This document shows, in pieces, positions 2,511 through 19,710 of a DNA stretch of 20,000 bases (positions within the stretch are counted from its first letter, which is position 1; each line of letters begins with the position of its first letter). The notes under the pieces were generated by a model. It saw nothing but the letters and a program-made list of their open reading frames with translations, had not been told where the DNA came from and ran no database searches. The stretch lies in IMG/VR virus record IMGVR_UViG_3300035637_000045. One strand, 5' to 3'. Source of the stretch: an uncultured virus (IMG/VR IMGVR_UViG_3300035637_000045). Taxonomy: Duplodnaviria > Heunggongvirae > Uroviricota > Caudoviricetes. Both the position numbers and the translations under genes were made by a program.

Positions 2511-2513
2511 GGA

Positions 2514-2969: not shown

Positions 2970-2980
2970 GGTATTCCCTT

Positions 2981-4153: not shown

Positions 4154-4220
4154 GCGGTCGCTTGTTATGCACCGAGGGCTTCATACGTCCGCCAACGATC
4201 TTTGAAAGATGAACGAGAGT

Positions 4221-4256
4221 GTACCGCAAAGCCCCGGAGTTAAGGCTTTGCGGTAC
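4221..4256. terminator. Perfect 13-bp inverted repeat, probable terminator after the lysis cassette
   Basis: GTACCGCAAAGCC (4221-4233), 10-nt loop, GGCTTTGCGGTAC (4244-4256). The minus-strand tail ACTCTCGTTCATCTTT is only a weak U-tract. Confidence 0.5.
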
Positions 4257-4335
4257 TGCAGGGGGTTGGGTAGCGAGGAATGAGCGGCCCCGCAAATGGC
4301 TCCCACCCCCTGCTGGGGCAGCCGCCATTGTTCGG

Positions 4336-4785: not shown

Positions 4786-5288
4786 TGGGCCTCCATGCAC
4801 TTTTTGTGGCGCTCTTGGGCACGCAGCCACACGCCCCGGCACCCGCTGCCGGGGAGGCTGCAGTCTTTGCCGGTCGCCCGGCGCGAGTCGAGGTTCAGGT
4901 AGGCGTTGCAGGATGCCACGTAGTCGCCACGGTTGATGGCCTTGACGACCTCAGACCGGCATGCCCCGCCAGAACCGCGCCAGTAGGCAAAGTCCACCAG
5001 GATGTCGTATTCCTGCTGGCTCAGGGGTCCAGTCACGCAGCGCTTGAGCTGCAGCTCGTCCTTGCCGATGTGGGCGAGGCTCATGCGCAGCGCTTTTTGT
5101 GGCGTGGTGGTGTCGCCCAGCTTCACCGGTGAGCCGTCTTCCTTGAACGTGGACCCAAAGCCCACCGTGGGACGGTCGCCAGGGATGGGGATGTATGCGC
5201 TGTCCCGGTAGCCTTCATGCGATACCAGGGCGATCAGCCCGGCAGCCGAGAGCACCAGCCCGGCCACTGCGGTGCGGCGCTGGCTCAT
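4782..5288 (-). CDS. SAR endolysin, GH24 phage lysozyme, 168 aa
   Basis: ATG 5288 overlaps the holin stop. Gly/Ala-rich SAR segment TAVAGLVLSAAGLIALV, then HEGYRDSAYIPIPGDRPTVGFGST. C-terminal GVWLRAQERHKKC. Confidence 0.9.
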   Translation of the reverse strand: MSQRRTAVAGLVLSAAGLIALVSHEGYRDSAYIPIPGDRPTVGFGSTFKEDGSPVKLGDTTTPQKALRMSLAHIGKDELQLKRCVTGPLSQQEYDILVDFAYWRGSGGACRSEVVKAINRGDYVASCNAYLNLDSRRATGKDCSLPGSGCRGVWLRAQERHKKCMEAQ

Positions 5289-5554
5289 TCGTCGGCCCCT
5301 AGTTCGCCAAGGTCGGTGTCCGCCCGCTGCCCGCGCCGTAGGCGCTCCATGCGCAACGCGTGCTCCGCTATGTGGCGGCGGTTCGCTTCGCGCTTGTAGT
5401 GCCAGCTGATAAGTACGCCGATCAGCGCGACGACAAGGCCCGCGAGCCCGATAAACTGGCTCGACAGGAGCCACCCGAATACGCCCAGGCCGGCGCCAGC
5501 GCCTGCGGTGCGGTCGCCCAGCGTGGCGAGGTGGTTGATAGCTTCGTCGTTCAT
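5285..5554 (-). CDS. Holin (possibly a pinholin), 89 aa
   Basis: One or two hydrophobic segments (GAGLGVFGWLLSSQFIGLAGLVVALIGVLISW) and a charged C-terminal tail. Directly upstream of the endolysin. Confidence 0.8.
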   Translation of the reverse strand: MNDEAINHLATLGDRTAGAGAGLGVFGWLLSSQFIGLAGLVVALIGVLISWHYKREANRRHIAEHALRMERLRRGQRADTDLGELGADE

Positions 5555-5570
5555 CTTGTGTTTCCTCTGG

Positions 5571-8500
5571 TCAAAGTTCTTCTTGGTCGTCTGTGGCGGT
5601 CATCGCCGGTCGAAGGGTGGTGTGCCGTGCCTGAGTGGCCGAGTCCCGGAAGCGCAGCACGGTCGCCTCGTCGGAGCGGATCGCGGGGGTAGCCTGTTGC
5701 CGGACCAGCAGGTCTTCTGTGCGCAGCGCGCTGAACAGCGGGTTCGCCCGGGCGCCCGTGGGGACCGAGCGACGTATCACGCCGAAGGCCTGTACCGTGG
5801 CCTGTATCAGGGCACGCAGGTCAATGGACGTGTCCAGGCCGGCCTCGGAAATGCTCTCGACGGTGAGGGCGCTTTCGAGGCTGATCTGGGTGAGCAGGGC
5901 GGCAGTCGCGGCGGCTGCGCTGGTGACGGACGAGGTCAGCAGGATCTCAGTGCCCAGGCCTGCGACCAGAGAAGCCTCGGCAACACCCGAACCGCGGAAG
6001 TTCGATCCGACGGTCAGGTCGGCTCCTGCCGAGGCGCTGGCGGTGAGGGCGGCGGCCAGCAGCACGGTGGTGGCGATGGAGCCGCTCGCACTGGCCCGGG
6101 CCTGGGCGGCGCCTGTCAGGAAGATCGGGACCGTCAGTGCTCCGTTCGCGGTGGCGGCGCCCTGCCCCGTACCCACCAGTGGCTTGGGTACTTGGAGCGA
6201 GAGGGCCTGCCCAGTGCTGGTGGCGGACACAGAAGCAGCCAGGCGGATGCCTGTCGTGGCCGCTGCCGTGCTGGTGCTGGCGGACACCGCCGCTGCCACC
6301 ATGCGGATAGCCGTTGTCAGGCTGGCGCTGGCCGTGGCCTGGCCGGCGGCTGCCGCATCGAACTTCTGCGGCACCTGCAGGAATGCCGAGGCGCTCGCCT
6401 GCGCGCTCGCGGTACCGGCGATGGGCTGGCGCACTGTGAGCGCACCAGAGGCCGTGGCCGCCGACACCGTGGAGCCTGCCAGGGCATGCAGGTTCACGAA
6501 CCGTGCGGTTGCAGAAGCCTGCCCCTGGGCGGTGGCCGCCATGTTGACGGCCGACGAGTACAGGCGCGGGCCGGTGTCGGCATAGATGCCCACCACGGCG
6601 CTGTCGGCGTTGCGCGCGGCCTTGCCGAACAGGGAGCCGTCGAAGACCGAAAAGTCGCCAGTGAGCGCGAGGGCTGCGGGCTTGACCCAGTGGTCGATCT
6701 CGTAGGTGTGGGCGAGCCCCGGGGCCACCGGGTCGGTCAGGACATCGAACCCCGAAGTGCGGGCGCTGTAGAAGGTGGGCGCCGAGCTGTAGGCGTCGCC
6801 GAACCAATAGCTCGCGGGCACGTTCGCGTCCTTGGCCGAGAACTGCACGGACTCCACGCCGCCGCCCCGGATCAGACGCAGGGCGTTCACGAAGTTGGTG
6901 GCCGCGCCGCCCGCGATGGTCATGGCGAGCACGCCGCCCGAGTAGCTGTGGGGGCCGGTCGTGCTGGTGGTCGGGAGCCCGCCCCAGTAGGTCCAGGCCG
7001 AGCCGTCGGTGGAGTGCAGCACCCAGCCCGTCGTGTCGGACACGAAGAGCACGAGGAAGCCGTCCGGCGTGCCGAACAGGAACATGGTGGCGGTCGAGGA
7101 CGGCAGGGCCTGGGCGGCGGACCAAGTGGTGCCGTCCGTGGAGTACCACGCATACCACGTCGAGCCGCTGCGGGCGCACAGGACGAAGCGCCCGTTGGCG
7201 CCGGCCATCTTCAGGGAGTCGATGCTCGCCCAGCCGCCCGCAGGCGCCGGGATGGTGGTGCCCACGGTCCAGGCCAAGCCGTCCGTGGTAACGGCGGTCT
7301 TGGGGCCGACCGACAGGAACGCACACACCCGGCTGGCGCCGTCCGAGGCCAGCAGGGTCGGCGTCTGGGCGTCAGGCATGGCGATGTCGGTCCAGGCCCC
7401 CAGGATCGGGTCGCGGCGCTTGGAGGGCGACATCACGAGGCCGGTGGACGGGGCGAACACCGTGTTCCCAGGCTCGTAGAACGCCGGGGCCTCGGTGACG
7501 CCGCCGCCCAGGGTCTTGGAGCGCACGCGCAGGGTGCCCGAGAGCTTGATCTGGGTGAGCAGGGCCGGCGTCGACAGGGTGGCCTCGCTGCGCAAGGTCA
7601 CGAGGTAGGGGTCGGTGTCGATCAGGGTCGTCGCGGTCGCGGCGCTGGCCGCCGAGGCGCTGCCGTCGAGGGCGTGGCTGACCCGGTTGCCCAGGTAGGC
7701 ACTGCTCGTGGTCGAGATCGTCGGCGCCGCGCCGAGCAGGCGGGCCGACTGCTTGCCCGTGGCGGTGAGCACCGGGCGGGTCGTGGCGAGGATGGGGTCC
7801 CCATCCGTGTTGATGCGGATGCCGGTCTCGGCGAAGTCCTGCGCGTCGGCGATGGAGTAGGTAGGGCCGTAGAACGCGGAGGCCCCAGCGATGGGGTGGG
7901 AGTCCCAGTCAATGCCGTTCGTCGTCGAGTAGGCCTTGGTCGCTTGGGTGCCCATGACCATGATCGCCGCGCCTGGAACGCTTGCCAGCTTGGCGCTGGA
8001 CCCGCCAGCGCCAAGTGGCGCATTGCTCGCGGTCCAGGTGACGCCCGCGTCCAGCGAGTGGTACGTGCCGATGGTCAGTACCCCGGCGACCATGGCCGCG
8101 AGGTTGTCGCCCACCGCGTAGGCCAGCGGGGGCGAGGTGACATCGGTGCGGACAGTCCAGGTGATGCCGTCCACCGAGTTGAGGGTGGCGACCTTCGAGG
8201 GGTAGCTGATGTAGCTGACCGTGCCGAGGGCCACGAACTTGCCGAGGGTCGCGTCGTACCAGAGACGGTCGCCCGCATCGACGCTCATGCCCGAGCGCAG
8301 GGACGGGACGACCCCGTCGGTGAAGGTGGGGCCGAGGCTCCAGCTCTGGCCGTCCGTCGAATACTGTGCCCGCCCTTCGTTCTGGGCGCTCAGGTTGGCG
8401 GACGTGTCGACGAGGCGCACGAACTTCCCGTTGCCGAAGACGATGCGGCTGGTCGGCAGGCCGTTCGCACCGGACCCCAGCGTCCAGGTCTTGCCGCCGT

Positions 8501-10772
8501 CGTCGGAGTAGTAGGGGCGCGAGTTGAACCCGAAGTCGCTGACGATGCGCGTGCCCGCCGCGTTCGAGGCGAAGTAAGGCGCGGACGGGCCATAGATCGC
8601 CTGCCCGGTGTCCACCCATCGCTGGCCCTCGTCGTCCGAGTAGAAGAGCCGGTAGGTCGATGCCCCGACGGGGTGGGAGGCCAGCCAGCGCCCGGACGCG
8701 AGCACGTAGTGGGGCGTGCCCACGCCTGGGTCGGTGCGGTCGAAGTACAGCCCTGCCCCCTTGACCGACGACCGCGTGCGCAGCGTGCCGATCCACTGGG
8801 TAGGCCCGTCGATCAGGGTCGCCGTCGCCGTGGAGGCCACCAGCAGCGGGCCGTCCGTGTAGAGCTTGGTGCCCTTGGCCGTCGTGAGGTCCGCGCTCGC
8901 CGACGCGGCGCTCAGCATCGGGTTCGCCAGGAAGATGGGCGAGTAGGCCCCAGCGCCACCGAGGGCTCCGGTCGCCGTCGAGCGCACGTACAGGTCGCCC
9001 AGCATGGGCGGCGTGGCGAACGACAGGGTCTCGAAGGTCAGGCGGGCGTAGCTGGTGCCGGTCAGGGCCATCAGCCCGTTGGTGACCGGCAGCATCGTCG
9101 CGTCGCCGTTGTAGCGGGCGGCCCACGAGGCGCCGCCGTCGCGGCTGACGTGGTAGGTGGCTCCCGCAGTCACGGCAATGAGGTACTGCGTGCCCACGGC
9201 GCGCAGCGACACCGTGCCCGAGGGCGCGTAGCCTGCCAGGGTCCAGGTCGTGCCGTTGGTCGTGGTGAGCACGGCCCCGTTGTTCGTCGCCACGGCGTAG
9301 GCCGCGCCGTTGAGCGTGACTGGCGCGCTCAGGGAGGTGATGCCGAGCCCGGTGGGCAGGGTGGCGAGGGTCCAGGCCGTGTCACCCACGCGCCAGCCGA
9401 CGATCTGGGCGTTCAGGGCCACCAGATAGTAGAGGCCGAGCTTGGCCGTGCCCCGGGCGGTCGTGAAGCCGATGCCCAGCGAGTCGGTGGTCGGCGAGTC
9501 GGTCCAGGTGATGCCGTCCGAGCTGCGCTGCAGGTACACCGCCGACGCCGTGCGCAGCGACAGGAACTCCCCCGCCGTGTTCACCAGGGCGCCCAGCGCG
9601 TAGCCGTTGCCTGTGGGGTTGGTGTACGCCGGGGTGGCCGTGTAGGGCGAGGCGAGGCGGTAGCGCGTGCTGCTCGACTCGTACACCAGATTGCCGGAGC
9701 CGTCGGCGGCAGCCCGCAGGATTTCGTCGGGGCCGTAGGAGAAAGCCGTGTCCGCAAACGACACTCCGCCGTCGGTGGACACGGCGAGAATATCCTGAAC
9801 GCCAGCCGGCGCGGGCCGGAACCCAAACACCAGTTCCTGGCCGTCGCTGCCCTTCGGGGTGAATGGCAGGCTGGCGTTCGCTACCGTGGAGGTGACCTTG
9901 AGGGCCGCGAACGTGGTCAGGCCTGCCGTCAGCACGGACGACTGGGCAGACACGAACCCGAACAGGCCGTCCGAATCGGTCAGGGTGCCGAGCGTGGCGG
10001 ACTCCGCCGCAGCGCTGCCGCTGATGGGGGTGCTGCGGTCGGTCAGCGTGCCCGTGCCGGACGCGGAGCTGGCGAGCGAGCCGCTGATGGCCTGCGTCGT
10101 GGGTGCGCCGCCGAAGGCGATGTTGCGCGAGAACTCGATGTACGAAGCGTGGTCCGACACCACTGCGTTTTCGGTCGTGTTGACCGTCGTACCGTCGAAG
10201 TAGAAGCTCACCGAGTAGGCAGTCCCCATCCCCTGCGTGAACTGGGCGCCGATCTGCACGACCAGCACGTCGCCAGCCTGGGCATCCACCACGTCGGTGT
10301 CCGCGCCATCGACAGGACGCATCGTGCGCGACACATACGAGACTTGCTCGGAAGACGCCGAGGTCGGCTCCAGCACGCTAGTGAGGGCGTCGTTGAAGTG
10401 CAGTCGCCCGATGATCGCGCCCGTCGATGGGCGGAACACAAACACTGCTGCGCCGTTGACGCAGTGGTTGACGTTGAGGTTCGTTTCCGAGTCGGCCACA
10501 CTCAGCGACATCGTGCCGGTGTTCGAGTAGGTGAACTGCTCGGCGTAGGACAGAGGTTCCGACACGAAGGTGGCCCAGACGCATCCCTGCTGCGCTGTGG
10601 TCGGCGAAGTGCCGAGCGTGACCTGCTTCTGCGCGGAGCCCGCAGTACCGAGCATCTGGCGCGGCGTGAGCGAGCCAGGGGCCTCCGCCAGCGCGGGGCC
10701 GATACTCAGGGTCTTGGGCGGGTTGTTCGCGCCTGTCCAGGCGAGGTCACGAAAATAGAGGCGGGTCGCCAT
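5571..10772 (-). CDS. Large tail fibre / receptor-binding protein with Asp-box (BNR) repeats and ~20-aa repeats, 1733 aa
   Basis: About 13 S/T-x-D/N-G-x-x-(x)-W/F Asp boxes (e.g. YSDDGGKTW, VSRDGGASW, HSLDAGVTW, YSTDGTTW) in three clusters, separated by A/S/T-rich repeats. Confidence 0.8.
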   Translation of the reverse strand: MATRLYFRDLAWTGANNPPKTLSIGPALAEAPGSLTPRQMLGTAGSAQKQVTLGTSPTTAQQGCVWATFVSEPLSYAEQFTYSNTGTMSLSVADSETNLNVNHCVNGAAVFVFRPSTGAIIGRLHFNDALTSVLEPTSASSEQVSYVSRTMRPVDGADTDVVDAQAGDVLVVQIGAQFTQGMGTAYSVSFYFDGTTVNTTENAVVSDHASYIEFSRNIAFGGAPTTQAISGSLASSASGTGTLTDRSTPISGSAAAESATLGTLTDSDGLFGFVSAQSSVLTAGLTTFAALKVTSTVANASLPFTPKGSDGQELVFGFRPAPAGVQDILAVSTDGGVSFADTAFSYGPDEILRAAADGSGNLVYESSSTRYRLASPYTATPAYTNPTGNGYALGALVNTAGEFLSLRTASAVYLQRSSDGITWTDSPTTDSLGIGFTTARGTAKLGLYYLVALNAQIVGWRVGDTAWTLATLPTGLGITSLSAPVTLNGAAYAVATNNGAVLTTTNGTTWTLAGYAPSGTVSLRAVGTQYLIAVTAGATYHVSRDGGASWAARYNGDATMLPVTNGLMALTGTSYARLTFETLSFATPPMLGDLYVRSTATGALGGAGAYSPIFLANPMLSAASASADLTTAKGTKLYTDGPLLVASTATATLIDGPTQWIGTLRTRSSVKGAGLYFDRTDPGVGTPHYVLASGRWLASHPVGASTYRLFYSDDEGQRWVDTGQAIYGPSAPYFASNAAGTRIVSDFGFNSRPYYSDDGGKTWTLGSGANGLPTSRIVFGNGKFVRLVDTSANLSAQNEGRAQYSTDGQSWSLGPTFTDGVVPSLRSGMSVDAGDRLWYDATLGKFVALGTVSYISYPSKVATLNSVDGITWTVRTDVTSPPLAYAVGDNLAAMVAGVLTIGTYHSLDAGVTWTASNAPLGAGGSSAKLASVPGAAIMVMGTQATKAYSTTNGIDWDSHPIAGASAFYGPTYSIADAQDFAETGIRINTDGDPILATTRPVLTATGKQSARLLGAAPTISTTSSAYLGNRVSHALDGSASAASAATATTLIDTDPYLVTLRSEATLSTPALLTQIKLSGTLRVRSKTLGGGVTEAPAFYEPGNTVFAPSTGLVMSPSKRRDPILGAWTDIAMPDAQTPTLLASDGASRVCAFLSVGPKTAVTTDGLAWTVGTTIPAPAGGWASIDSLKMAGANGRFVLCARSGSTWYAWYSTDGTTWSAAQALPSSTATMFLFGTPDGFLVLFVSDTTGWVLHSTDGSAWTYWGGLPTTSTTGPHSYSGGVLAMTIAGGAATNFVNALRLIRGGGVESVQFSAKDANVPASYWFGDAYSSAPTFYSARTSGFDVLTDPVAPGLAHTYEIDHWVKPAALALTGDFSVFDGSLFGKAARNADSAVVGIYADTGPRLYSSAVNMAATAQGQASATARFVNLHALAGSTVSAATASGALTVRQPIAGTASAQASASAFLQVPQKFDAAAAGQATASASLTTAIRMVAAAVSASTSTAAATTGIRLAASVSATSTGQALSLQVPKPLVGTGQGAATANGALTVPIFLTGAAQARASASGSIATTVLLAAALTASASAGADLTVGSNFRGSGVAEASLVAGLGTEILLTSSVTSAAAATAALLTQISLESALTVESISEAGLDTSIDLRALIQATVQAFGVIRRSVPTGARANPLFSALRTEDLLVRQQATPAIRSDEATVLRFRDSATQARHTTLRPAMTATDDQEEL
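5775..6552 (-). repeat. About 13 tandem ~20-aa protein-level repeats in the fibre C-terminus
   Basis: LHALAGSTVSAATASGALTV / RQPIAGTASAQASASAFLQV / PQKFDAAAAGQATASASLTT / PKPLVGTGQGAATANGALTV / TVLLAAALTASASAGADLTV and others. Diverged at the DNA level; boundaries approximate. Confidence 0.85.
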
Positions 10773-11020
10773 CAGGCACCGCCTTTCGCCGGCTCCAACT
10801 CAACATACGTGAAAGGGCAGCAGCCCCGGAACTCAGGGGTCACAGGGCAGTCCAGCTCAGGAGCCGGGCCGACGGCGCCCTCCCAGCAGTCGCCGCGCCG
10901 GTCACACACGCCGTGCACCTCCCAGCGCCGCCCGTCCGTGGTGCGGACGTAGCGGACGTACCCCTCGCGCTGTTCTTCAATCAGGACGAAGGGGTCGCAG
11001 GTAGGCGACAGGGCGGACAC
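10772..11020 (-). CDS. Small Cys-rich hypothetical protein, 82 aa
   Basis: Fills the gap between flanking genes. Its TGA overlaps the fibre ATG (TGATG). Six Cys: TC, GVCDRRGDC, LDC, GCC. GTG start with a weak SD. Confidence 0.65.
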   Translation of the reverse strand: MSALSPTCDPFVLIEEQREGYVRYVRTTDGRRWEVHGVCDRRGDCWEGAVGPAPELDCPVTPEFRGCCPFTYVELEPAKGGA

Positions 11021-11031
11021 GGCGCCGGAGA

Positions 11032-11472
11032 TTAGTTGTCGATCTGCAGCGACAGGGCACCAGCGGCGAACTGGGGCGCGGCGTCACCGCTGTTCACGGT
11101 CTTGCTGGTGTTCAGCGAGCCATAGAACAGGACGTTGCCCGCTGTGGATGCGTCCATCAGCGCGAAGTGCGTGATCGTCCCCCAGTTGGCCGTGGGTGCC
11201 GGGAAGGTCACCGCGCCGTTGTTGCTGGTGGTGCCGGTGTTGCCGCTGGAGGCCGTGGTCGAGCCTGCCGCCTGCGTGCCCGCCCAGTTTGCCAGCGAGC
11301 TGGCCACGGCCACGCGGGCGTACGAGCCGCCCGTCACTTCGGTGCCGCCGGTCGATTCCGTGGGCGCAGCGGTGTGCAGCGCGACGTGGATGGTGGCAGG
11401 CATCGTGAATGCTTGCCCGCGGAACATCGCGTCAATGATTTTGTTTTCGAGGTAGTCAGACATCGCGGCCAT
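11032..11472 (-). CDS. Small virion fibre subunit, 146 aa
   Basis: MSDYLENKIIDAMFRG...IHVALHTAAP...GGTEVTGGSYARVAV...FPAPTANWGTITHFALMDA is a widespread phage tail/fibre structural family. AAGGAG SD. Confidence 0.75.
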   Translation of the reverse strand: MAAMSDYLENKIIDAMFRGQAFTMPATIHVALHTAAPTESTGGTEVTGGSYARVAVASSLANWAGTQAAGSTTASSGNTGTTSNNGAVTFPAPTANWGTITHFALMDASTAGNVLFYGSLNTSKTVNSGDAAPQFAAGALSLQIDN

Positions 11473-11483
11473 GGCGCGCTCCT

Positions 11484-12095
11484 TCAGGTGGTGATTTCTT
11501 TGGTCACCGACACAGGGCCGGTGAAGAGGCAGGTCACGTCCCCGGAGGGCGCGACCACTTCGAGGTCATAGACCGCGTCGGCCCAGGCGACGAGGGCCGT
11601 TTCGTCGTCGCTGATGAACAGCTCGATGAGCTTCTCGGCGTCGTCGACGGTGATGCCGCCGTTCTCGGTCGTGAGGGTCAGCAGTACGGTGCCGCCCACG
11701 CGATCCTTGATCGCCATGCGGGCCGTGTAGCCGGTGAGGTCGTGCGGGGCGTACCACTTGAGGTAGCCGCTGCTGCTGTAGGGGCGGAACGAGGCCGAGC
11801 TGATCTCGTTCAGCTCGATGGCCGACGGACCGACGACCACAGCCTCGTGGAAGTCTCTGCCCTTTGGCGGGTTGTTCTTCGCGTTCAGTTCGGTCATGCC
11901 CTTGGCATCGACCACGGCCACGCGCCAGCCGTCAGGGATGCCGTGCGGCGCCTGGGTGGTGATCTGTACGATGCCTGCCTGGGTCATCGCCTGGATCGCG
12001 GCAGTCATGAAGCGCTGGGACTCCCAGCGGGCGATCTTGCGGAAGGTCCGGCCCTGCTGGATGACCAGCGGCGCGATGGTAGGTTGACCGCTCAT
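11484..12095 (-). CDS. Putative fibre-tail adaptor (BppU/LtfC-like beta-sandwich with an inserted domain), ~203 aa
   Basis: IQQGRTF...DLTGYTARMAIK...AVYDLEV...LFTGPVSV pattern, with an ~90-aa insert (ITTQAPHGIPDGWRVAVVDAKGMTELN). ATG 12095 overlaps the upstream TGA; alternative GTG at 12098. Confidence 0.65.
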   Translation of the reverse strand: MSGQPTIAPLVIQQGRTFRKIARWESQRFMTAAIQAMTQAGIVQITTQAPHGIPDGWRVAVVDAKGMTELNAKNNPPKGRDFHEAVVVGPSAIELNEISSASFRPYSSSGYLKWYAPHDLTGYTARMAIKDRVGGTVLLTLTTENGGITVDDAEKLIELFISDDETALVAWADAVYDLEVVAPSGDVTCLFTGPVSVTKEITT

Positions 12096-12733
12096 CACAG
12101 ACCCCCGTACTGAACAGACCCGACCTGGCGGCGCGCACGAACCTGCTCGGCGCGGGCGCGGGCGCAGTAGTCGCGGAACTTCAGTTCGTAGTCTTCGGAT
12201 TTGCGACGGTCGAAGGTCTCGGCGTCATGCACGTCGTACGCCAGCCGCTTGGCCCAGTACAGCAGCGCCATGTGGTGCTGCTCGTCGATCTCGAAAGAGC
12301 CCCCCTCGCCCACCGGCTCTGGCAGGCGGAACACGTCCAGCGCGACCTCGGCTGCCTCGTTGGGCAGGGGCCAGGCGCGGAGCATGCCCTTCTCGATACC
12401 GGCCACCAGAGCCTTCAAAGGCCCGGGGCGACCGTCAAAACGAATACCGCCCTGCTCGGCGCGCTCCTGGTTGACGATGTCGACCGGGCGCCCCGTGCTG
12501 GTGAGGTAGGCCTTGCGCAGCTTCAGGATGCGCTTGCTGAGCGGGTACCACTCGACGCCGGGAACGATGCCGAGCTTGATCGACCGCCCGTCCTCGATGC
12601 CTTCTGTGAGGCGGCAGAACTCCACCTGCGCTGCGTTGATGTAGGCGTAGACCGTCTCATCCGCAAACAGGTACGGCTGCTCCTGGTCGCGCATCTCTAC
12701 GCGGAACAGGTCGAGGAGTTCTGTCGCGTCCAT
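12095..12733 (-). CDS. Head-tail adaptor / head completion protein, 212 aa
   Basis: Helical N-terminus (ELLDLFRVEMRD...VYAYINAAQVEFCR), beta-rich middle (LRAWPLP), helical C-terminus (HMALLYWAKRLAY), typical of podovirus adaptors. Confidence 0.7.
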   Translation of the reverse strand: MDATELLDLFRVEMRDQEQPYLFADETVYAYINAAQVEFCRLTEGIEDGRSIKLGIVPGVEWYPLSKRILKLRKAYLTSTGRPVDIVNQERAEQGGIRFDGRPGPLKALVAGIEKGMLRAWPLPNEAAEVALDVFRLPEPVGEGGSFEIDEQHHMALLYWAKRLAYDVHDAETFDRRKSEDYELKFRDYCARARAEQVRARRQVGSVQYGGL

Positions 12734-12738
12734 GGCGC

Positions 12739-13110
12739 TCAGTCGTCCTTGCCGACCTTGAACTCAGTCCACAGGATGTCGCGCTCTTTGGCGCCGAGCT
12801 TCCAGCCCAGGATCGACTCGAGAGCACCGCCGTGCGGGGCACCGCCGGCAGTGAAGTCTTCGCGGGAGTTGCGCAGGGCCAGCATCTCAAACGCGGCGAA
12901 GACGTCGTCCTTGCGCTTGTTCGGGTCTTGGGGCTCGTTGGTCTTGACGGCGCTGGGCGCGTCTTCGATCTCGTCGTCGGGCACGGCACCAATGGCCTGC
13001 ACCTCGGCGTACAGCTCGGGTGGGACGTGCGTGGGCACGCCCTTTTTGAACTCGACGGACAGGCCCAGCACGGAGGCGTGGACACGGTCGCGGTTGAGGG
13101 TGAACTTCAT
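12739..13110 (-). CDS. Hypothetical phage protein, 123 aa
   Basis: GGAG SD, codon bias matches neighbours, tightly packed in the operon. Confidence 0.75.
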   Translation of the reverse strand: MKFTLNRDRVHASVLGLSVEFKKGVPTHVPPELYAEVQAIGAVPDDEIEDAPSAVKTNEPQDPNKRKDDVFAAFEMLALRNSREDFTAGGAPHGGALESILGWKLGAKERDILWTEFKVGKDD

Positions 13111-13129
13111 AGCGATCTCCAGGTGATGG

Positions 13130-13157
13130 AAGAACGGGGCGCTAAGGCCCCGTCTTC
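13130..13157 (-). terminator. Hairpin after the capsid and decoration genes, likely a partial terminator
   Basis: mRNA: GAAG-ACGGGGC-CUUAGC-GCCCCGU-UCUUC. 7-bp GC-rich stem with a short pyrimidine tail. Confidence 0.55.
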
Positions 13158-13167
13158 ATGGTCCCGA

Positions 13168-13620
13168 TCAGTTCGGGTTGACTTCGGTGATACGGCCGTC
13201 GGTCGTGTAGTTCACGCGGAGGCGGAACTTGCCGGCCGAGGCGTTGGCCACCGTCGATGCGATGGTCACGCGCACGTTCTTGCCGTCCACAGCCGCCAGG
13301 CCCAAACCGGTCAGGGCGACCCGGGTACCGGCTGCGGACAGCAAGGTCGTTGCTGCCAGGAGGGCGGCGGCGGAGGCCGAGGTGCCGACAGCGGCGGTGT
13401 AGGCCGTAGGGCCGACGCCCGCCTCTTCGACGATCAGTTCGCCACCGACCACCACCGCGCCCTGGGGCAGGTTGATAACCTCGAAGACACCGGCATCGGT
13501 GTAGACGGAGCCGAAGGTCTTGAGGGCCCCGGCGGTGTCTTTCATGGTGTCGTTGAAGCTGAATACGAACTCAGCCGACATGACGGGCTGTGCGCCGCGG
13601 GTTGCTTGTTTCAGAGCCAT
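13168..13620 (-). CDS. Putative capsid decoration/cement protein, 150 aa
   Basis: Follows the major capsid gene with a strong SD (TAAGGAGG). Beta-sandwich-like pattern (LPQGAVVVGG...AGKFRLRVNY). Confidence 0.65.
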   Translation of the reverse strand: MALKQATRGAQPVMSAEFVFSFNDTMKDTAGALKTFGSVYTDAGVFEVINLPQGAVVVGGELIVEEAGVGPTAYTAAVGTSASAAALLAATTLLSAAGTRVALTGLGLAAVDGKNVRVTIASTVANASAGKFRLRVNYTTDGRITEVNPN

Positions 13621-13633
13621 GGTGATGCCCTCC

Positions 13634-14752
13634 TTACTGAGCCACGTAGCACGAGATCACGCCGAAGTCTTCGACGGAGCCGTTCTCGTAGATGTTGCCG
13701 AACTTGGGCTTCAGGAAGCCGAGGATCTTGCCCACCGAGATACCTTGCGAGTTCTCGTAGTCAAAGCCCTTTTCGTTCCACTCGGGTGCGCCGATGTCGG
13801 CCATGGCCAGCGCCTGGGCGCCGCAGAACAGCACCTGGCAACCGTCGACCGTGCCCACCGCGCCGTACTTCGAGCCAGATGCGGCGCCGGTGGTGTTGGG
13901 CACATGGCGGAACTCGTGCAGGTAGATGCCGTCGATCTTCACGGTCGCGCCGGTGAAGAGCGGGTTGGCCTTGTCACGCTCTTGCGCGTGGCGCAGATTG
14001 AGCATGTAGTTTTGGTCCATCTTCAGCTTGGCCATGGCCTGGGGCGTCAGGAAGGCGTGGAAGGTTTCCTCGCCGCCGTCTTCCTTCACGCCACGGATGT
14101 AGCGGTCCTTGGCGTAGGCCTTGAGCTGCACGAACATTTCCCACATCGGGGTGTCGGTGGCGGCCACACCGGAGCTGGCGGCGCCGGCCACCAGGGTCTT
14201 GGTGGCCGAGGTGCCGTCCCAGCGCAGGCGGCGGGCAGCGGTCGGGGCGGCCACGTCAGCAGCGAACTCCAGGAACTGGAGGTCGGAGCCGGTGCGGTTC
14301 GCGCCGTTGGGCTTCTTGGCGTAGCTGATGCCGGCCATGGTCTGGAATGCCAGCTGGTCCATGCGGTCGGCGAGCCAGTAGCTCAGCAGGTCGCGGCTGT
14401 TGCCACGGAACTCGATGATGGACTTCTGGTCGGCCATGCGGCCTTCGTGGCGGTTGGCTTGACGCAGCTGGTCGATGCGGATGACCTGGTCAAAGGTCTG
14501 CATCGCTTCTTCGTTGCCTTCCAGCGTGCGGTCACCGGCAATGCCGTCGCCGGTCAGGTCGGCCAGCAGCGTGATGACTGCGCGGGCGCCCTTCTCGGAC
14601 TTCTTCAGCTCGGTGATGTGCTGAATCAGGCTGTTGGGGCCCTTGCCCAGGAAGCGGTTGATGAAGGAGTGGTTGCGGGACTGTTTCCACAAGTCCATAG
14701 ACCAGACGGTCTTCTGCTCGGACGTCAGGAGTCCGAAATTGGTGAGTGCCAT
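13634..14752 (-). CDS. Major capsid protein, N4-gp56/DUF4043-like family, 372 aa
   Basis: Motifs ELKKSEKG, GDRTLEGNEE, IDQLRQA, NPLFTGA...IDGIYLHE, LFCGAQAL, DFGVI. Position after portal and scaffold. Confidence 0.9.
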   Translation of the reverse strand: MALTNFGLLTSEQKTVWSMDLWKQSRNHSFINRFLGKGPNSLIQHITELKKSEKGARAVITLLADLTGDGIAGDRTLEGNEEAMQTFDQVIRIDQLRQANRHEGRMADQKSIIEFRGNSRDLLSYWLADRMDQLAFQTMAGISYAKKPNGANRTGSDLQFLEFAADVAAPTAARRLRWDGTSATKTLVAGAASSGVAATDTPMWEMFVQLKAYAKDRYIRGVKEDGGEETFHAFLTPQAMAKLKMDQNYMLNLRHAQERDKANPLFTGATVKIDGIYLHEFRHVPNTTGAASGSKYGAVGTVDGCQVLFCGAQALAMADIGAPEWNEKGFDYENSQGISVGKILGFLKPKFGNIYENGSVEDFGVISCYVAQ

Positions 14753-14879
14753 GGTGGCGCCCTTTCGTTGGTAGACAAAAACGATCGGCCTGGAGGGCCT
14801 GCCTTTTGCCGATGTGTCGTCTCGACCAACGAGGGTGGAAAGATGCTGTCGGGATCTTTGCCTTTAACCGATGGAGCAC

Positions 14880-14907
14880 ATTCTAATCTATAAAAGATAA
14901 ACGACAA
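14880..14907 (-). promoter_or_regulatory. Candidate sigma70-type promoter for the capsid operon
   Basis: Minus strand TTGTCG-N16-TAGAAT in a strongly AT-rich patch, ~125 nt upstream of the capsid ATG. Confidence 0.45.
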
Positions 14908-14926
14908 GCGGCGCCGAAGCGCCGCT
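14907..14926 (-). terminator. Intrinsic terminator-like hairpin closing the three-gene insert
   Basis: mRNA AGCGGCGC-UUCG-GCGCCGCU (cUUCGg tetraloop, 8-bp stem) followed by UGUCGUUUAUCUUUU. T-rich on the other side too. Confidence 0.7.
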
Positions 14927-14945
14927 GTGGTTTATTTGCGTGGGG

Positions 14946-15281
14946 TCAGCTGGCGGCCAGCTTGCTGCGCAGCTCGTAGCCCATGAGGGGCCACAGCTCG
15001 TTCTTGGTGTTGCTGATGGCAACCGCTACGCCGATCTCTGCGTCGTCGTTCTCTGGGGAAACGCTGACCGAGGGGCGCCCAACGACGGCGAAGCCGTTGC
15101 GAGTCGTGATGACTGCCCAGCGCAGCACCTGGCCGTTGACACTGACGTGCTTCACGATCTCGGTGTCAATGATGTTTGCCGACATGTCTTCTGGGGTCAC
15201 CCGTGGGGCAGTCTTTCCCTTGGCCTGGATCAGGCGCTCGATGCCTGCGTCGGACGTGTCGGGTGATGGGATGTGGTTCAT
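14946..15281 (-). CDS. Phage gp49/gp66-family protein, putative Acb4-like anti-CBASS nucleotide sponge, 111 aa
   Basis: ATG 15281 overlaps the upstream TGA. Motifs APRVTP, NGFAVVG...SVSPENDDAEIG...A...LWPLMGYEL match my recollection of the N4 gp49/Sf6 gp66 family (PF13876). Confidence 0.75.
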   Translation of the reverse strand: MNHIPSPDTSDAGIERLIQAKGKTAPRVTPEDMSANIIDTEIVKHVSVNGQVLRWAVITTRNGFAVVGRPSVSVSPENDDAEIGVAVAISNTKNELWPLMGYELRSKLAAS

Positions 15282-15703
15282 GCGACACTCCAATCGTCGG
15301 CCAACACGTCGTTCACGCTGGGCACCCAGGTACTGACCGTACCATCCACGTTTTTGATCGCCATATAGGCGTTGTAGGGCACCATCGCGCCTGCGCCGAA
15401 GTGCGCCTTGGCCGCGCCAGTCTGCACTGGGTAGCTGGCCGGTGGGACCAAGTACACGAACATGCCCTTGCCGTTCCAGCCGGCGCGCGAGGCGCGCATG
15501 CCCAGCTTCATGTAATGCAGAGCATCGCCGAAGGTCAGTGCCTGCGGCAGCCCCGGTTCGCTGGTGCGGTACGCGCCCTCAAAAGCCTCTTTCGGGCTCC
15601 AACTGATATAGCCGTCGGCGTACTTAACGCCATAACCGGGCGCGCCGTCTTTCTCGGCGGGCCATGCGGTTACTTCTTTTGTACCGATGTAGCGGTGGGT
15701 CAC
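15278..15703 (-). CDS. Two-domain protein: uncharacterised N-terminal domain plus DUF2829 (Tad2-like anti-Thoeris sponge), 141 aa
   Basis: Start re-set to GTG 15703 after SD GAAAGGA. C-domain LTFGDAL..MKLG.RASRAGWNGKGMFV...WVPSVNDVLADDW has the DUF2829 signature. N-domain is YIGTKEVTAWP...GYGVKYADGYISWSPKEAFEGAY. Confidence 0.85.
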   Translation of the reverse strand: MTHRYIGTKEVTAWPAEKDGAPGYGVKYADGYISWSPKEAFEGAYRTSEPGLPQALTFGDALHYMKLGMRASRAGWNGKGMFVYLVPPASYPVQTGAAKAHFGAGAMVPYNAYMAIKNVDGTVSTWVPSVNDVLADDWSVA

Positions 15704-15713
15704 GGGGTTCCTT

Positions 15714-16151
15714 TCAGCGAGCCTGCTCGCGTGCGATAGCGTGGACGACGCCACGGAAGATGAAGTCCTTGGCCTTCTGCTCGGTCGGCAGGTCAGCGTA
15801 CGGGACGATGCACGGGTGCTCCTTCTTGGCCGGGTCCTTGATCGGGCCGTAGGTCCAGCCGGTGTCCAGCTTCTCGCGCATCCAGGCGTCGTGGCTGGCA
15901 CTCACGCCCAGGTTCGGGTTGCGCAGGTGCAGCTGTACGCCCTTGACGGCGCTGTCGCGCTGCCACTGCGGAGCGTCTTCCCAGTTGGTCTGGGTCATGT
16001 CGCCGACGGCCTCACAGTAGGCCTTGTTGACCTCGTGGGCCACGCGGGCGACGGAGAGTTCCAGCGGAGAAGCGAAGGTCTCGGCGGTGGCGCCGCTGGC
16101 CAGGGCTACGGCGGCGGATGCCTTGGCGGCGGCGGTCATGCGGGTGCTCAC
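15714..16151 (-). CDS. RyR-domain protein, 145 aa
   Basis: HDAWMREKLDTGWTYGPIKDPAKKEHPCIVPYADLPTEQKAKD matches the ryanodine-receptor repeat consensus (H..W...K...GW.YG...D...K.HP.LVPY..L.E.EK..D). GTG overlaps the scaffold stop; alternative ATG four codons later. Confidence 0.85.
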   Translation of the reverse strand: MSTRMTAAAKASAAVALASGATAETFASPLELSVARVAHEVNKAYCEAVGDMTQTNWEDAPQWQRDSAVKGVQLHLRNPNLGVSASHDAWMREKLDTGWTYGPIKDPAKKEHPCIVPYADLPTEQKAKDFIFRGVVHAIAREQAR

Positions 16152-17137
16152 AGCTCATCCCCCCGCATCCGGGCCAGCACGTCGTCCGGCAGCTTGCGGA
16201 AGTCGTCCTGGCTCAGCTTCATGACGTCCTTGGCGGTCAGGGAGCCGCCGGCCTTGTCGCTGTCCATGCCCACCTTGGTCATGCTGGGCGGCGTCTTGCC
16301 CATGGCGTCCAGGGTCTTCTTCACGGCGTCCTTCTTGCGCTCGGCGGCCACGTCCTTGTCGGCCACGCGCGGCGTGGTGTCGATGGCGGCTTCCTGCTTC
16401 TTGGTGCTCGTGCCCAGCAGCTTGTCTACGGCCTTCTGCATGGCGGCGGTGGGGGTCAGGCCCTTGCGCTCGTAGGCACCCTTGAGGTCGATCACGTCTT
16501 CCATCAGGGCCTCGTCGTAGTCGCCGTGATCCTCGTTCAGCTGGGGGTAGGCCGACTCGATGCGCTCCAGGGCCACGTTGTAGCGGGCGCGCTCGGTGGC
16601 GCGGGCTTCGGCCGCCGCGATCTTCATGTCGTTCTTGGCGTCGCCGATGCTGCGCTCGGCCTGACGGATCTTGGACATCAGGGCCGCAGCCTTGTCCAGC
16701 TCGCCTTCGCCCAGCAGGGCGTTGTACTGCTTCTCCATGGCCAGGATGCTCTCCTCGGCCTGGGTGATGTCCTGGTTCAGGGAGGCGACCTCCGTGCCGC
16801 GCTGGAACTGCGACAGCTGGCGCTCCAGGTCGGCGCGCTTGGCACGCTCCTTCTCCAGCAAATCCTTGTGGCGGGACAGCGGGATGCGCTGTTCACGCTG
16901 CTTTTTCTCGGCCTTGGTCTCTTCCTCGGCCTCCGGGTCGGCGTCTGGGTCTTCGGGGTCGATGTCGTCGTCCGAGTCCGCGGCGCTGGGGGTGGGCTTT
17001 GCGGCCGGCGCGGGCTCGTCTTCCGTGGAGACGAAGTCGTCGCCCCGGTCAATCACGCCGGAGCCGCCGGTGTCGGAGCCGTCATCGCCCGCCGGGGCCA
17101 TGTAGCGCGAGAGGAGTTTCTGCAAGAGCGGGTTCAT
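16148..17137 (-). CDS. Capsid scaffolding protein, 329 aa
   Basis: Acidic disordered N-terminus, RIPLSR motif, long coiled coil, C-terminal helix (KLSQDDFRKLPDDVLARMRGD). Lies between portal and capsid. Confidence 0.8.
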   Translation of the reverse strand: MNPLLQKLLSRYMAPAGDDGSDTGGSGVIDRGDDFVSTEDEPAPAAKPTPSAADSDDDIDPEDPDADPEAEEETKAEKKQREQRIPLSRHKDLLEKERAKRADLERQLSQFQRGTEVASLNQDITQAEESILAMEKQYNALLGEGELDKAAALMSKIRQAERSIGDAKNDMKIAAAEARATERARYNVALERIESAYPQLNEDHGDYDEALMEDVIDLKGAYERKGLTPTAAMQKAVDKLLGTSTKKQEAAIDTTPRVADKDVAAERKKDAVKKTLDAMGKTPPSMTKVGMDSDKAGGSLTAKDVMKLSQDDFRKLPDDVLARMRGDEL

Positions 17138-19281
17138 CGGAGTCCTTTGGTTGGTTGGGTGGTCTGGGGCTTCTGCGCGGCCATCGCGGCCTCGCGGGAT
17201 GCTTCTGCGCGCTTGTCCAGGCGCTCCTGGGCCTGCTGCTGGGCCTGGAGGGACAGCTTGTCGTTGTGCTGCTGGCGCTGCAGGCCGAGCTTCTGGTAGT
17301 CCAGCACGCGGCGGTGCTCGAACTCACGCTCGGCCAGGTCGGCCTCGTGCTGGGCCTTGGCCGCCTCCAGCTCAGGGTTGCCGGCGTCTGGGGCGTCGGG
17401 GGGCGTGTTCGCCAGGACCTGGGCCTTGACGATGGTCTCCTGGGTCTTGGCACCCTTGAGCTGGGCATCAGCGTGCTTCTGGGCGGCTTCGCCTTCGGCC
17501 TTGCCGACTTCAGCTTCCTGGGCGCGGCGCTGCAGCTCGGCTGCGGCCTGGGCTTCGGGGCTCTCCTGGTCGCCCTGCATCTGCTTGATGATGTCTTTCT
17601 TGTTCATCAGGCGGCTGGAGTCGATCAGCACGCTGTCGGGGATCATCACGCCCATCTCGCGCAGGGCCACGGCCTGCTCGAACTGGCTGTCTTCCAGGGT
17701 CTCGCGGCGCGGTACGGAGCTGACCACCACGTCGTACTCACCCAGGGTCAGGTCGTTAACGATCTGGCCTGCAGGGGTGACCTCGTTCACGGCGAAGGTC
17801 TCGGTCTCGCCTGTGGCCTCGTCGTGGGTGATCGTCATGATGCGCTCTTCGGTGTAGAACTGCTGCACCAGGTCGAGGATGTTGCGGGCCAGAATGTGGT
17901 CGGTGCGCGACAGGCTGTCCATCGGCTTGGCCAGGTTCGTCGCGCCGGCCTGGCGCTTGGCCTGGATGGCCTTGGCAGCCACGTCCTCGCGGTCGAAGCC
18001 CCGGGCAGAGTCCGATACGCCGGAGATCGTCTTGATGTGCTCTTCGGCCTTGTAGGTGATGCGGTCCAGGCCGGTGGGCACCTGGTTGGGCTGGATCTTT
18101 TCGATGTCGTTGACGTCGTTGACCTCGACTACCAGCCCGGTCTGGGCGCCCTTTTCTTCCAGCTCCTCCACGGTCATATTCGTGAGCGAGCCGGTCTTGA
18201 CCTTCCAGCCGCTGTTGGCCGTGGTGTTGATGACGTGCAGCTCCTGACTGGAGACCTTGTTCAGCAGCTCCTGGGGACCCAGCAGGTTCTCGACCAAGCC
18301 GATGGTCGTGCCCCGGCGGAAGTACGGGAAGAACGGCACCACCGTGAAGTGCTTGTAGGGGCTCCAGTCGTCGTGCAGGCGCACGTTGTCGGCGATCACC
18401 GTCCAACGGATGCGGCGCACGAGCTTGGTCGTGACCTGCAGCCCGTACTGGCTCGTCATCAGGGCGATCTTGTTGCGGTCGAAGTCGTCTGGGATGGGGC
18501 GCATGTCGCCCGTGGTGGGGTCGACGAAGTGTTTCTGGCGGTCCAGCAGGCGGTACTGGCGCTCGATCAGGCGGATGTTGCGCATCACCGAGCTGTTGTC
18601 ATAGTCGCCCGTGTACATCGGGTTGAACCGGTCGCCGAACCGGTCACGGAAGGCCTGGATGCTGTCGTAGCCGTAGGGGAAGAAGCTCTGCTCGCGGTTG
18701 CGCAGATATTCGGCGTCCTCCTTGTTGTAGAGCACCGCGATGTCGTCTGCGGTGACCCACTTGGTCGTGAACACCTCGCTCCAGCTGTCCGGGTCGTACT
18801 CTTCGCCGTCCGGATCGATGATGACGTTCTTGGGGTTCAGGTTGTCGACGATCACCTCGCCCTGCATGCTGTCGCCGTAGCCGATGCGCACGTCCAGGAA
18901 GCCCCGGGAGGTGATGGCACCGTCGGCGAACATGTCGCTGCGCTTCCAGTCGAGCTGGTTGTTGTCGCTGATCTGCTTGAAGACCTTGGTGAGGATGTCA
19001 GCGACTTCGCTGGGGGCACCGGAGCGCGGCCGGAAGCTCGTCTCGGCCCGGTTGAAGATCTGCTCGCCCAGCACGTTGCTGATCGTGGAGAGGATCTTGT
19101 TGATCGTCAGCGCCGGGCGGCGCACGGCCTCCAGGCGGGCCTTGTCGGCGCGGTCCCACTGGTCGCCCCGGAAGAAGGCGTCGCATTTCTCCGCCTTCTG
19201 GACGAACTGGGCATGACCGTTGTCACGACTCCACGCATACCGCGTCCAGATTTTTGTGGCGAGTGCAGTGTCAATCGGCAT
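17134..19281 (-). CDS. Portal protein, P22-like, 715 aa
   Basis: FFRGDQW, RPALTINKI, VPFFPY, GLVENLLGPQELLNK, NDLTLGEYDVVV, and a Q/A/E-rich C-terminal coiled coil. Lies downstream of the terminase. Confidence 0.9.
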   Translation of the reverse strand: MPIDTALATKIWTRYAWSRDNGHAQFVQKAEKCDAFFRGDQWDRADKARLEAVRRPALTINKILSTISNVLGEQIFNRAETSFRPRSGAPSEVADILTKVFKQISDNNQLDWKRSDMFADGAITSRGFLDVRIGYGDSMQGEVIVDNLNPKNVIIDPDGEEYDPDSWSEVFTTKWVTADDIAVLYNKEDAEYLRNREQSFFPYGYDSIQAFRDRFGDRFNPMYTGDYDNSSVMRNIRLIERQYRLLDRQKHFVDPTTGDMRPIPDDFDRNKIALMTSQYGLQVTTKLVRRIRWTVIADNVRLHDDWSPYKHFTVVPFFPYFRRGTTIGLVENLLGPQELLNKVSSQELHVINTTANSGWKVKTGSLTNMTVEELEEKGAQTGLVVEVNDVNDIEKIQPNQVPTGLDRITYKAEEHIKTISGVSDSARGFDREDVAAKAIQAKRQAGATNLAKPMDSLSRTDHILARNILDLVQQFYTEERIMTITHDEATGETETFAVNEVTPAGQIVNDLTLGEYDVVVSSVPRRETLEDSQFEQAVALREMGVMIPDSVLIDSSRLMNKKDIIKQMQGDQESPEAQAAAELQRRAQEAEVGKAEGEAAQKHADAQLKGAKTQETIVKAQVLANTPPDAPDAGNPELEAAKAQHEADLAEREFEHRRVLDYQKLGLQRQQHNDKLSLQAQQQAQERLDKRAEASREAAMAAQKPQTTQPTKGLR

Positions 19282-19356
19282 GGTGGCGGACCCGCTCGCG
19301 CGAGTGGTCCGCCGTGCCGATCAGGCCGGTTTCGTGTGTTTGTGGGGAGGGCGCGC

Positions 19357-19710
19357 TCATTTCAGGTATCTCAGCTTGTACAAGGTCTGGGCCGTCAGGG
19401 CCTGCAGCTCGTTCAGGATGTTGGCCAGGGCCTGGTTCTTGCCGTCCTCGGCCAGCTCGGCTGCGATCTTGCCGAGGTAGGCGGTCAGGCTGGAGATCAG
19501 GTTGCCCGAGGGCAGGCTGGTGGCGGGGAACGACTTGATCCGGCCCCCGGTGCCCATGTAAACCTCGGCGTACTGGTCAACCAGCGGCAGGAGGGCGCTG
19601 TAGAAGTCGCCGAGGGCGACGTGCTGGGCGTAGGACTCGGTCGAGAGGTGGGCCAGGTGGGCTGCGGTGCGCAGCGCCATGCTATCGACGATGAATTGGG
19701 GGCAGCTCAT
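19357..19710 (-). CDS. Dps/ferritin-like four-helix protein (DUF5856-like), 117 aa
   Basis: Start re-set to ATG 19710. AHLAHLSTESYAQHVALGDFY...VDQYAEVYMG...LYKLRYLK resembles the Dps H...H...D..AE ferroxidase pattern. Confidence 0.7.
   Translation of the reverse strand: MSCPQFIVDSMALRTAAHLAHLSTESYAQHVALGDFYSALLPLVDQYAEVYMGTGGRIKSFPATSLPSGNLISSLTAYLGKIAAELAEDGKNQALANILNELQALTAQTLYKLRYLK

Follow-up and report, generated by a model that had tools for sequence, protein, structure and literature searches.

The first 47 residues of a 141-aa phage protein form a small domain (hereafter the module) that, according to homology searches, is fused to at least four unrelated families of immune-signal sponges (Tad2, Acb4, Sequestin and RyR Tad), and probably to six if Lockin and Acb2, for which the fusions were recognized by eye, are added. 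The protein is encoded in a 20,000-nucleotide IMG/VR record of an uncultured phage (IMGVR_UViG_3300035637_000045), the whole of which is referred to below as the window. The analyses establish the identity of the domain, its membership of a family, its fusion partners, its occurrence as stand-alone genes and its setting in a genomic hotspot. A strand-swapped dimer, which the module may form by analogy, is documented in a single homolog, gp68, and in a preprint. With regard to function, we tentatively favor, at somewhat less than even confidence, an autonomous, self-dimerizing binding module, for which a small-molecule signal would be the most plausible target.

The gene encoding the 141-aa protein (Table 1) is preceded by the sequence AAGGAA at 15708-15713, four bases 5' of its start codon, and its stop codon overlaps the ATG of the downstream Acb4-like gene (ATGA). 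Homologs of the protein start with MTHRYIGTKEV. Pfam assigned PF11195 to aa 57-140 (E 3.7e-23, 82.3 bits vs. a gathering cutoff of 25). An AlphaFold2 model of the whole protein (pLDDT 95.9, pTM 0.83) was obtained with a hand-picked alignment of 60 rows, which included 32 Tad2-fusion representatives, 7 close homologs and 20 short members. Foldseek searches with this model returned 24 matches at E<=1e-3, all of those listed being Tad2 or AcrIIA7 entries. The top match was ModTad2 9eib_B (E 4.2e-10, 49% identity, target TM 0.83), further matches included HgmTad2/AcrIIA7, SptTad2 and SPO1 Tad2, and the matches covered the C-terminal domain only. On the basis of both the profile and the predicted structure, aa 57-140 are identified as a Tad2-like domain. 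The first-pass annotation of this DNA had placed a compact, separate unit at residues 1-47, followed by a Pro/Gly linker (SEPGLPQA) and by DUF2829 from near residue 56. The translation reproduced the interval exactly, with the quoted peptide and linker in place, PF11195 was found to begin one residue further on, at aa 57, and the unit was predicted to fold in isolation, as described below.

Table 1. Positions in the window of the module, of the gene that carries it and of the neighboring genes.
Feature	Coordinates	Strand	Basis or remark
Whole gene, 141 aa, GTG start	15278..15703	-	ORF translation
N-terminal module, aa 1-47, short form of the family	15563..15703	-	Fold model and relatives
Linker, aa 48-56 (SEPGLPQAL), irregular secondary structure in the model	15536..15562	-	Translation and AlphaFold2
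Tad2-like (DUF2829, PF11195) sponge domain, aa 57-140	15284..15535	-	Pfam and Foldseek
Three-gene anti-signaling cassette	14946..16151	-	Between scaffold and major capsid genes
RyR-domain protein, 145 aa, without N-terminal module; RyR Tad / RyDEP homolog	15714..16151	-	PF02026, E 1.1e-11
Acb4-like protein, 111 aa (PF13876, Phage_gp49_66)	14946..15281	-	Pfam E 7.1e-14
Scaffold gene	16148-17137	-	PHROG/homolog context
Major capsid gene	13634-14752	-	PHROG/homolog context

In the model of the whole protein the module has strands at about aa 3-6, 10-18, 21-27 and 33-37 followed by a helix at aa 38-44, and when it was modeled alone with a 35-row alignment, AlphaFold2 gave a pLDDT of 95.0; the module is thus predicted with high confidence to be a small antiparallel beta-sheet with one capping helix. 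Searches of reference collections left this fold unnamed: aa 1-48 of the protein had no Pfam match at E<=1, the module had none in NCBIfam, PDB sequences, when searched with a profile of alignment A2, yielded nothing beyond a chance match of 11 residues to cytochrome c (E 1.3), and Foldseek with the module alone returned no PDB match at E<=1e-3. Comparison against 48,161 chains using VIA-align gave a best Z of 4.0 (Mfd RID, 6m6a_M) and no value of 5 or above, which falls within the range of common arrangements for this tool. The best rows corresponded to Mfd RID, chromodomains, Tudor domains, DUF1653, CarD and CdnL, and these matches reflect a common small-barrel arrangement, with Z values too low to indicate kinship or function. 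Only uncharacterized members of the same family were retrieved from BFVD, and two look-ups of the module in the ESM Atlas gave scores of 0.86 or lower and no named family.

Eight residues of the module (K9, G23, Y24, Y28, Y32, S34, W35 and P37) were invariant and six others (D30, S36, K38, F41, E42 and Y45) nearly so. The mean net charge was -0.56, the median pI 5.55 and the aromatic content 17%; DNA binding in the style of Sso7d was rejected, the module being acidic to neutral. Co-folding of two copies of aa 1-50 with alignment A2 scored 0.16 against a mark of 0.42 in a run without controls, and is neutral with respect to dimerization. An origin of the module by duplication of the C-terminal half of DUF2829, suggested by the likeness between SWSPK..FE..Y in the former and W.PS..D.LA.DW in the latter, was ruled out by hhalign against Tad2 (probability 0.7%). 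The corresponding probabilities against the Sequestin and Acb4 domain alignments were 0.3% and 0.4%, respectively.

The module proved to be widespread. A phmmer search with aa 1-50 against 1.84 billion representatives detected 918 proteins at E<=1e-3 (91 at E<=1e-10), each the representative of a cluster at 50% identity, and in nearly all module-bearing representatives the match lay at residues 1-50. Four PHROG families matched the module (phrog_32732, 9467, 872 and 11049). Among the best 150 representatives, 149 were scanned with Pfam (P0122, of 6085 aa, was omitted because of its length), and a Tad2-like domain was found in 37, Sequestin (PF21825) in 25 and Acb4 (PF13876) in 17, two proteins that carry both Sequestin and Acb4 being counted under each. 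Another was P0182, a 2313-aa giant with Ig repeats, and the remaining 71 had no Pfam family. Neither P0182 nor P0122, although the latter was the top phmmer match, gave anything significant with the module HMM, and both were discarded as compositional false positives. Our own HMMs detected weak Tad2, Acb4 or Sequestin tails in 11 of the 71 representatives lacking Pfam families; 26 others extended less than 25 aa past the module, while tails of 25-50 aa (17 proteins) and of at least 50 aa (17 proteins) matched no HMM.

Closer relatives were mostly Tad2 fusions: among the 120 listed of 157, 112 carried Tad2 only, four Sequestin only, one both Tad2 and Sequestin, one Acb4, and two none of these. 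A search for proteins longer than 247 aa returned only three, all of them Sequestin fusions. Identity between modules from different partner classes was 0.56-0.59, compared with 0.57-0.62 within classes and 0.27-0.32 for the partner domains, a comparison biased by the fact that the set was chosen by module similarity. The first-pass annotation had described the motif GY.V.Y.DGY.SWSPK..FE.AY as common in unannotated phage proteins, which the homolog searches bear out, and had expected Tad1/Acb2, Tad2 and Acb4 as partners. Tad2 and Acb4 were indeed found, together with Sequestin and RyR Tad, and with Acb2 and Lockin by eye. It had also reasoned that a domain never seen apart from DUF2829, or showing no enrichment near anti-defense genes, would speak against its proposal; these other partners and the stand-alone genes described below place the module outside DUF2829 proteins, and its gene in the window lies inside the anti-defense cassette of a hotspot.

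Several architectural variants were observed in the family. Two forms exist, a short one of ~46 aa, as in the 141-aa protein, and a long one of ~66-75 aa, in which the last hairpin and the region behind the second strand carry insertions; long or short forms and tandem copies are exemplified by P0248, P0208, L110-L113 and P0267. Two tandem copies are present in P0248, and P0208 comprises one divergent and one standard copy plus a Tad2 domain. Three-part proteins were represented by P0039 (214 aa), P0246 and P0264, with the arrangements module-Tad2-Sequestin, module-Sequestin-Acb4 and module-Acb4-Sequestin. Placements other than N-terminal were rare: in L028 (678-1205) the module is C-terminal, behind an unrelated domain of ~115 aa without Pfam match, and further cases are P0125 and P0158. 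C-terminal regions of 50-260 aa outside Pfam and our Tad2, Acb4 and Sequestin HMMs followed the module in P0178, P0187, P0199, P0132, P0138, P0157, P0230, P0239, P0257 and P0258. By the logic of fusion, such unmatched regions are candidate new sponge or anti-defense domains.

The module has one characterized relative. RyR Tad, gp68 of Pectobacterium phage vB_PatP_CB1, has at its C-terminus a sponge domain resembling RyR Repeat12 (Fedorova et al., bioRxiv 10.64898/2026.06.04.730250), and its N-terminal domain, translated from NC_048653, corresponds to the long form of the module with its two insertions. Alignment A2 and gp68 (aa 4-70) were matched by hhalign with a probability of 92% (E 6.8e-7, 48 columns), and hmmsearch with the module scored 22.8 bits against gp68; judged by these profile comparisons, the module and the N-terminal domain of gp68 belong to one family. 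According to the same preprint, the N-terminal domain is swapped in the gp68 crystal, the first strand entering the other protomer and completing a five-stranded sheet, so that the domain contributes to the dimer. The preprint further reports that in the crystal, grown with gcADPR, the ligand is described in the RyR domain only, that aa 1-86 alone had "no apparent activity" against type I Thoeris, and that domains of this type often occur as a single ORF (bioRxiv 10.64898/2026.06.04.730250). The family is thus known as a structure in that one preprint, without a name or a described distribution. No account of how the module is distributed across sponge families was found in the open-licensed PMC papers and bioRxiv preprints searched, the journal versions of which, with their supplements, may say more.

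Published homolog tables of sponges were also found to contain the module. In the work of Tal et al. 2025, PF11195, PF13876 and PF21825 correspond to Tad2, Acb4 and Sequestin, all of them experimentally verified sponges, and Sequestin was discovered by querying the Pfam portal for families of unknown function fused to Tad2 or Acb4; the module was invisible to such a query because it has no Pfam model. It fits the description used in that screen, namely short, fused to known sponges and also found alone. The Sequestin homolog table (3,244 IMG/VR and 640 INPHARED rows) contained 291 occurrences of SWSP, 255 of them as Y[IVT]SWS, and the table of 1,331 Acb4 homologs contained 52 of SWSP and 16 of SWCP, some of which may be due to chance, although every example shown is the module. 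Judged by eye, the module also precedes two homologs in the Lockin table and one in the Acb2 table. A "known homolog" of Tad2 from E. coli AIEC_UM149 carries the long form, and the four other SWSP matches in the Tad2-homolog sheet were chance occurrences. All 13 Sequestins (A to M) that Tal et al. 2025 report having tested lack the module. Among the supplements of the structure-guided sponge screen, only the Lockin and Sequestin homolog tables contained the motif, so the stand-alone family was apparently outside the 124 tested candidates, if the files include those.

Genes consisting of the module alone were frequent. Scanning IMG/VR with stand-alone members (alignment A3) resulted in 470 stretches confirmed by tblastn, and the best 80 of these were classified as 32 complete stand-alone ORFs (48-97 aa, 28 distinct sequences), 19 Tad2 fusions, 16 Acb4 fusions (one of them cut), 9 Sequestin fusions, 2 loci cut by contig ends and 2 others, counts that are not population frequencies because the query favored stand-alone forms. 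Neighborhoods were analyzed at 21 loci, with one representative for the near-identical L004-L017 group, by Pfam scanning of 145 proteins (144 plus-strand neighbor ORFs and the module protein of L028; 18 minus-strand ORFs were dropped). Stand-alone genes followed endolysin genes at four loci (L008, L024, L038 and L074) and lay 3' of the portal gene, in the head module, at three (L031, L076 and L052), with a recognized capsid gene downstream in L031 only; the others adjoined late or nucleotide-metabolism genes. Within about 2 kb, none of the 21 loci had a separate Tad2, Acb4, Sequestin or RyR gene, except L082. At that locus (2998-4760), a module-Tad2 gene is interrupted by an IS element (transposase HTH and rve integrase), which leaves 72 aa on the N-terminal side and 77 aa of Tad2 on the other, and the locus is included among the 32 stand-alone ORFs. 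The existence of stand-alone genes argues against a purely joining domain, for which separate genes would be unexpected.

In the window, the gene order on the minus strand is portal, scaffold, RyR-domain gene, module-Tad2 gene, Acb4-like gene and major capsid. The ATGA overlap between the Tad2 gene and the Acb4-like gene suggests that the three cassette genes are translationally coupled to the head operon. The RyR-domain protein shares 54% identity over 103 aa with the C-terminal domain of gp68, and retains all six of the preprint's ligand residues (H87, W90, K105, H112, K128 and D129). Proteins with this domain are reported to sequester gcADPR and cADPR (Fedorova et al., bioRxiv 10.64898/2026.06.04.730250), whereas a second 2026 preprint, which names them "RyDEP", disagrees and describes cleavage of the cADPR signal feeding NAD+ synthesis. 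Comparison by megablast of window positions 13000-19500 with GenBank phages gave no matches, and the nearest of the records compared (G001) covers only positions 1-14153 of the window. Two large ORFs of the window had no PHROG match at E<=1e-5, one of 1733 aa in the structural region (5571-10772, minus strand) and one of 836 aa at 3-2510.

The capsid protein is 63% identical to those of Pseudomonas phages KPP25 and phiR18, and the scaffold and capsid genes of KPP25 are direct neighbors, with a 181-nt gap and no inserted gene. Among 80 IMG/VR relatives (capsid identity 72-98%), both genes were found in 69, and in 35 of these 69 loci the gap between them contained recognized sponge genes in 11 arrangements: Acb4 (10 loci); Acb4 and RyR (8); Acb4 and module-Sequestin (3); Tad2 (3); RyR, an Acb4-Tad2 fusion, Sequestin, and Tad2 with Acb4 (2 each); and a RyR-Acb4 fusion, Sequestin with Acb4, and the combination found in the window, RyR, module-Tad2 and Acb4 (1 each), the last in a relative with 98% capsid identity (L084). 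Nothing was recognized in the other 34 gaps, 9 of which were effectively empty (<=252 nt). The scaffold-capsid site is a variable hotspot for anti-signaling genes, and the module is an optional cargo there, since some of the Tad2 and Sequestin genes at the site have it and others lack it. Many of the unrecognized gaps hold ORFs without a known identity, among them ORFs of 135 aa (L139-L144), 181 aa (L095 and L096) and 899 aa (L088, L090, L091 and L131), which would be candidate anti-defense genes. The module coding sequence was considered as a recombination anchor for the swapping of sponges within this phage group, a proposal that gained no support, as the only other module-bearing genes at the hotspot, those of L110-L113, have the long form and are not close in sequence.

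If the module acts autonomously in binding, a first-strand swap like the one in the gp68 crystal would hold two copies together, and the resulting dimer would present K9, Y24, Y28, D30, Y32, S34, W35, S36, K38 and E42 to a target that would be the same in very different hosts. We infer that the most plausible candidate for this target is a small-molecule signal distinct from the cyclic ADP-ribose (gcADPR) signals used by type I Thoeris, in which case the 141-aa protein would combine two activities, one of them the sequestration of Thoeris signals by its Tad2 domain. Autonomous binding is favored because the fusion pattern is the one that identified Sequestin, because stand-alone genes are frequent, and because polar and aromatic residues are conserved, equally so across partner classes in what is a selection-biased set. 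It is disfavored by the lack of any known sponge gene within about 2 kb at the 21 loci, L082 aside, and by fold matches that are uninformative. That the module constitutes a structurally new family of immune-signal sponges, in which a strand-swapped beta dimer would bind, in an aromatic-lined site, a ligand beyond the range of its partners, seems possible although rather doubtful; candidate ligands would be Pycsar, type II or IV Thoeris, type III CRISPR or decoy signals. A classical nucleotide sponge is disfavored by the inactivity of the gp68 fragment, reported for type I Thoeris only, the system that its partner already covers, by the slightly acidic character of the module compared with the pockets of known sponges, described as strongly positive and located between protomers (Tal et al. 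2025), and by the presence of the motif only in the homolog tables of the screen files. The first-pass annotation had suggested an independent nucleotide-binding module that could make the protein a dual-specificity sponge. Independence of the domain held up; nucleotide binding did not gain from the inactivity of gp68 aa 1-86 or from the net charge, and the dual-specificity sponge is a live hypothesis for the 141-aa protein.

Architectural and protein-binding roles are serious rivals, each of them unlikely when taken singly. In a purely architectural role the module would have no ligand of its own, and strand-swap dimerization would tie sponge protomers or oligomers together, raising stability, valency or higher-order assembly. 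Dimerization is indeed the only activity observed in a family member, as the preprint describes it for the gp68 crystal, the isolated fragment was reported as inactive against type I Thoeris, the charge of the module is near neutral, and the module is dispensable, given that Tad2 and Sequestin lack it at some hotspot loci and Tad2 lacks it in all solved structures. However, the partners are described as assembling by themselves (Sequestin as dimers, Tad2 and Acb4 as tetramers), genes of the module alone are frequent and lie in lysis and head modules away from any tagged sponge, and the (nearly) invariant polar residues K9, D30, S34, S36, K38 and E42 would be unusual for a simple interface. Were the module instead a small barrel of the Tudor/chromo type that binds a conserved host or phage protein or a nucleic acid, such binding might localize the sponge, or block an immune protein or a sponge-sensing guard system. 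The best fold matches, weak as they are, all belong to peptide- or protein-binding small barrels (Mfd RID, chromodomains, Tudor, CarD and CdnL), the module is rich in aromatic residues, its stand-alone genes lie in late modules (lysis or head), and guard systems of the Panoptes type, described as sensing sponges, would offer a possible use for a companion module. Yet no Z exceeds 4.0, the net charge argues against DNA binding, and a near-universal target would be needed, as the module is kept in phages of Proteobacteria, Bacteroidota and Firmicutes. The optional presence of the module at the hotspot and the reported inactivity of the isolated gp68 fragment would also suit a domain of no specific function, be it an aid to folding, solubility or expression or a remnant of shuffling, but this is very improbable in view of the 918 diverged representatives, the ~57% identity across partner classes, the invariant polar residues, and the many phages that maintain complete stand-alone genes.

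Sponge proteins are a main route by which phages get past signaling immunity (Thoeris, CBASS and Pycsar), and the fusion pattern of the module is that of Sequestin extended across more families, one to which domain-database searches are blind in the absence of a Pfam model. Should the module bind a signal, it would represent a new sponge family with hundreds of members, and many known sponges would become two-target proteins; should it be only an assembly device, it would represent a shared way of building sponge oligomers. In either case it provides a cheap marker for anti-defense genes and hotspots in phage genomes, and points to partner domains. As the module tags many sponge families, its uncharacterized C-terminal partners would, if the sponge reading is true, list undiscovered anti-defense domains, with 17 candidate tails of at least 50 aa among 148 representatives.

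Compared with the Tad2 sponges (SPO1 Tad2, ModTad2 9eib, HgmTad2/AcrIIA7 and SptTad2), the 141-aa protein resembles them at aa 57-140, which match PF11195 and the solved structures, and differs by its N-terminal module, an addition with respect to the solved Tad2 chains listed, which are 73-104 residues long and align to the C-terminal domain only. The N-terminal domain of gp68 is like the module in preceding a sponge domain and in occurring as single ORFs; unlike it, the gp68 domain has the long form (about 66 aa vs. 46) and a RyR Repeat12-like partner instead of Tad2, and only for gp68 have strand-swapped dimers and a lack of activity against type I Thoeris been reported. Tudor/chromo-like barrels (Mfd RID 6m6a_M, HP1 chromodomains and CarD) and DUF1653 (3be3) share with the module three to four antiparallel strands followed by a helix (Z 3.3-4.0, rmsd 1.8-3.2 over 41-49 residues), whereas these barrels have no sequence similarity to it and no Foldseek match at E<=1e-3. 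Sequestin (PF21825, crAss001_48) is described as small, mostly stand-alone, dimeric and fused to Tad2 and Acb4, a pattern that the module shares, although it is all-helical, with verified 3'cADPR binding and anti-Thoeris activity, and the module is beta-rich. Proteins with two sponge domains are reported in Pasteurella phage Pm86 (Acb4-Tad2) and in phage Ab09 (gp59, Acb4-Sequestin); both halves of these fusions are proven sponges, while in the 141-aa protein the Tad2 half belongs to a proven family, and they provide the precedent for one protein that blocks two systems. Finally, the scaffold-capsid hotspot has an analog, in a different genomic place, in the hotspot described for N4-like phages (bioRxiv 10.64898/2026.06.04.730250).
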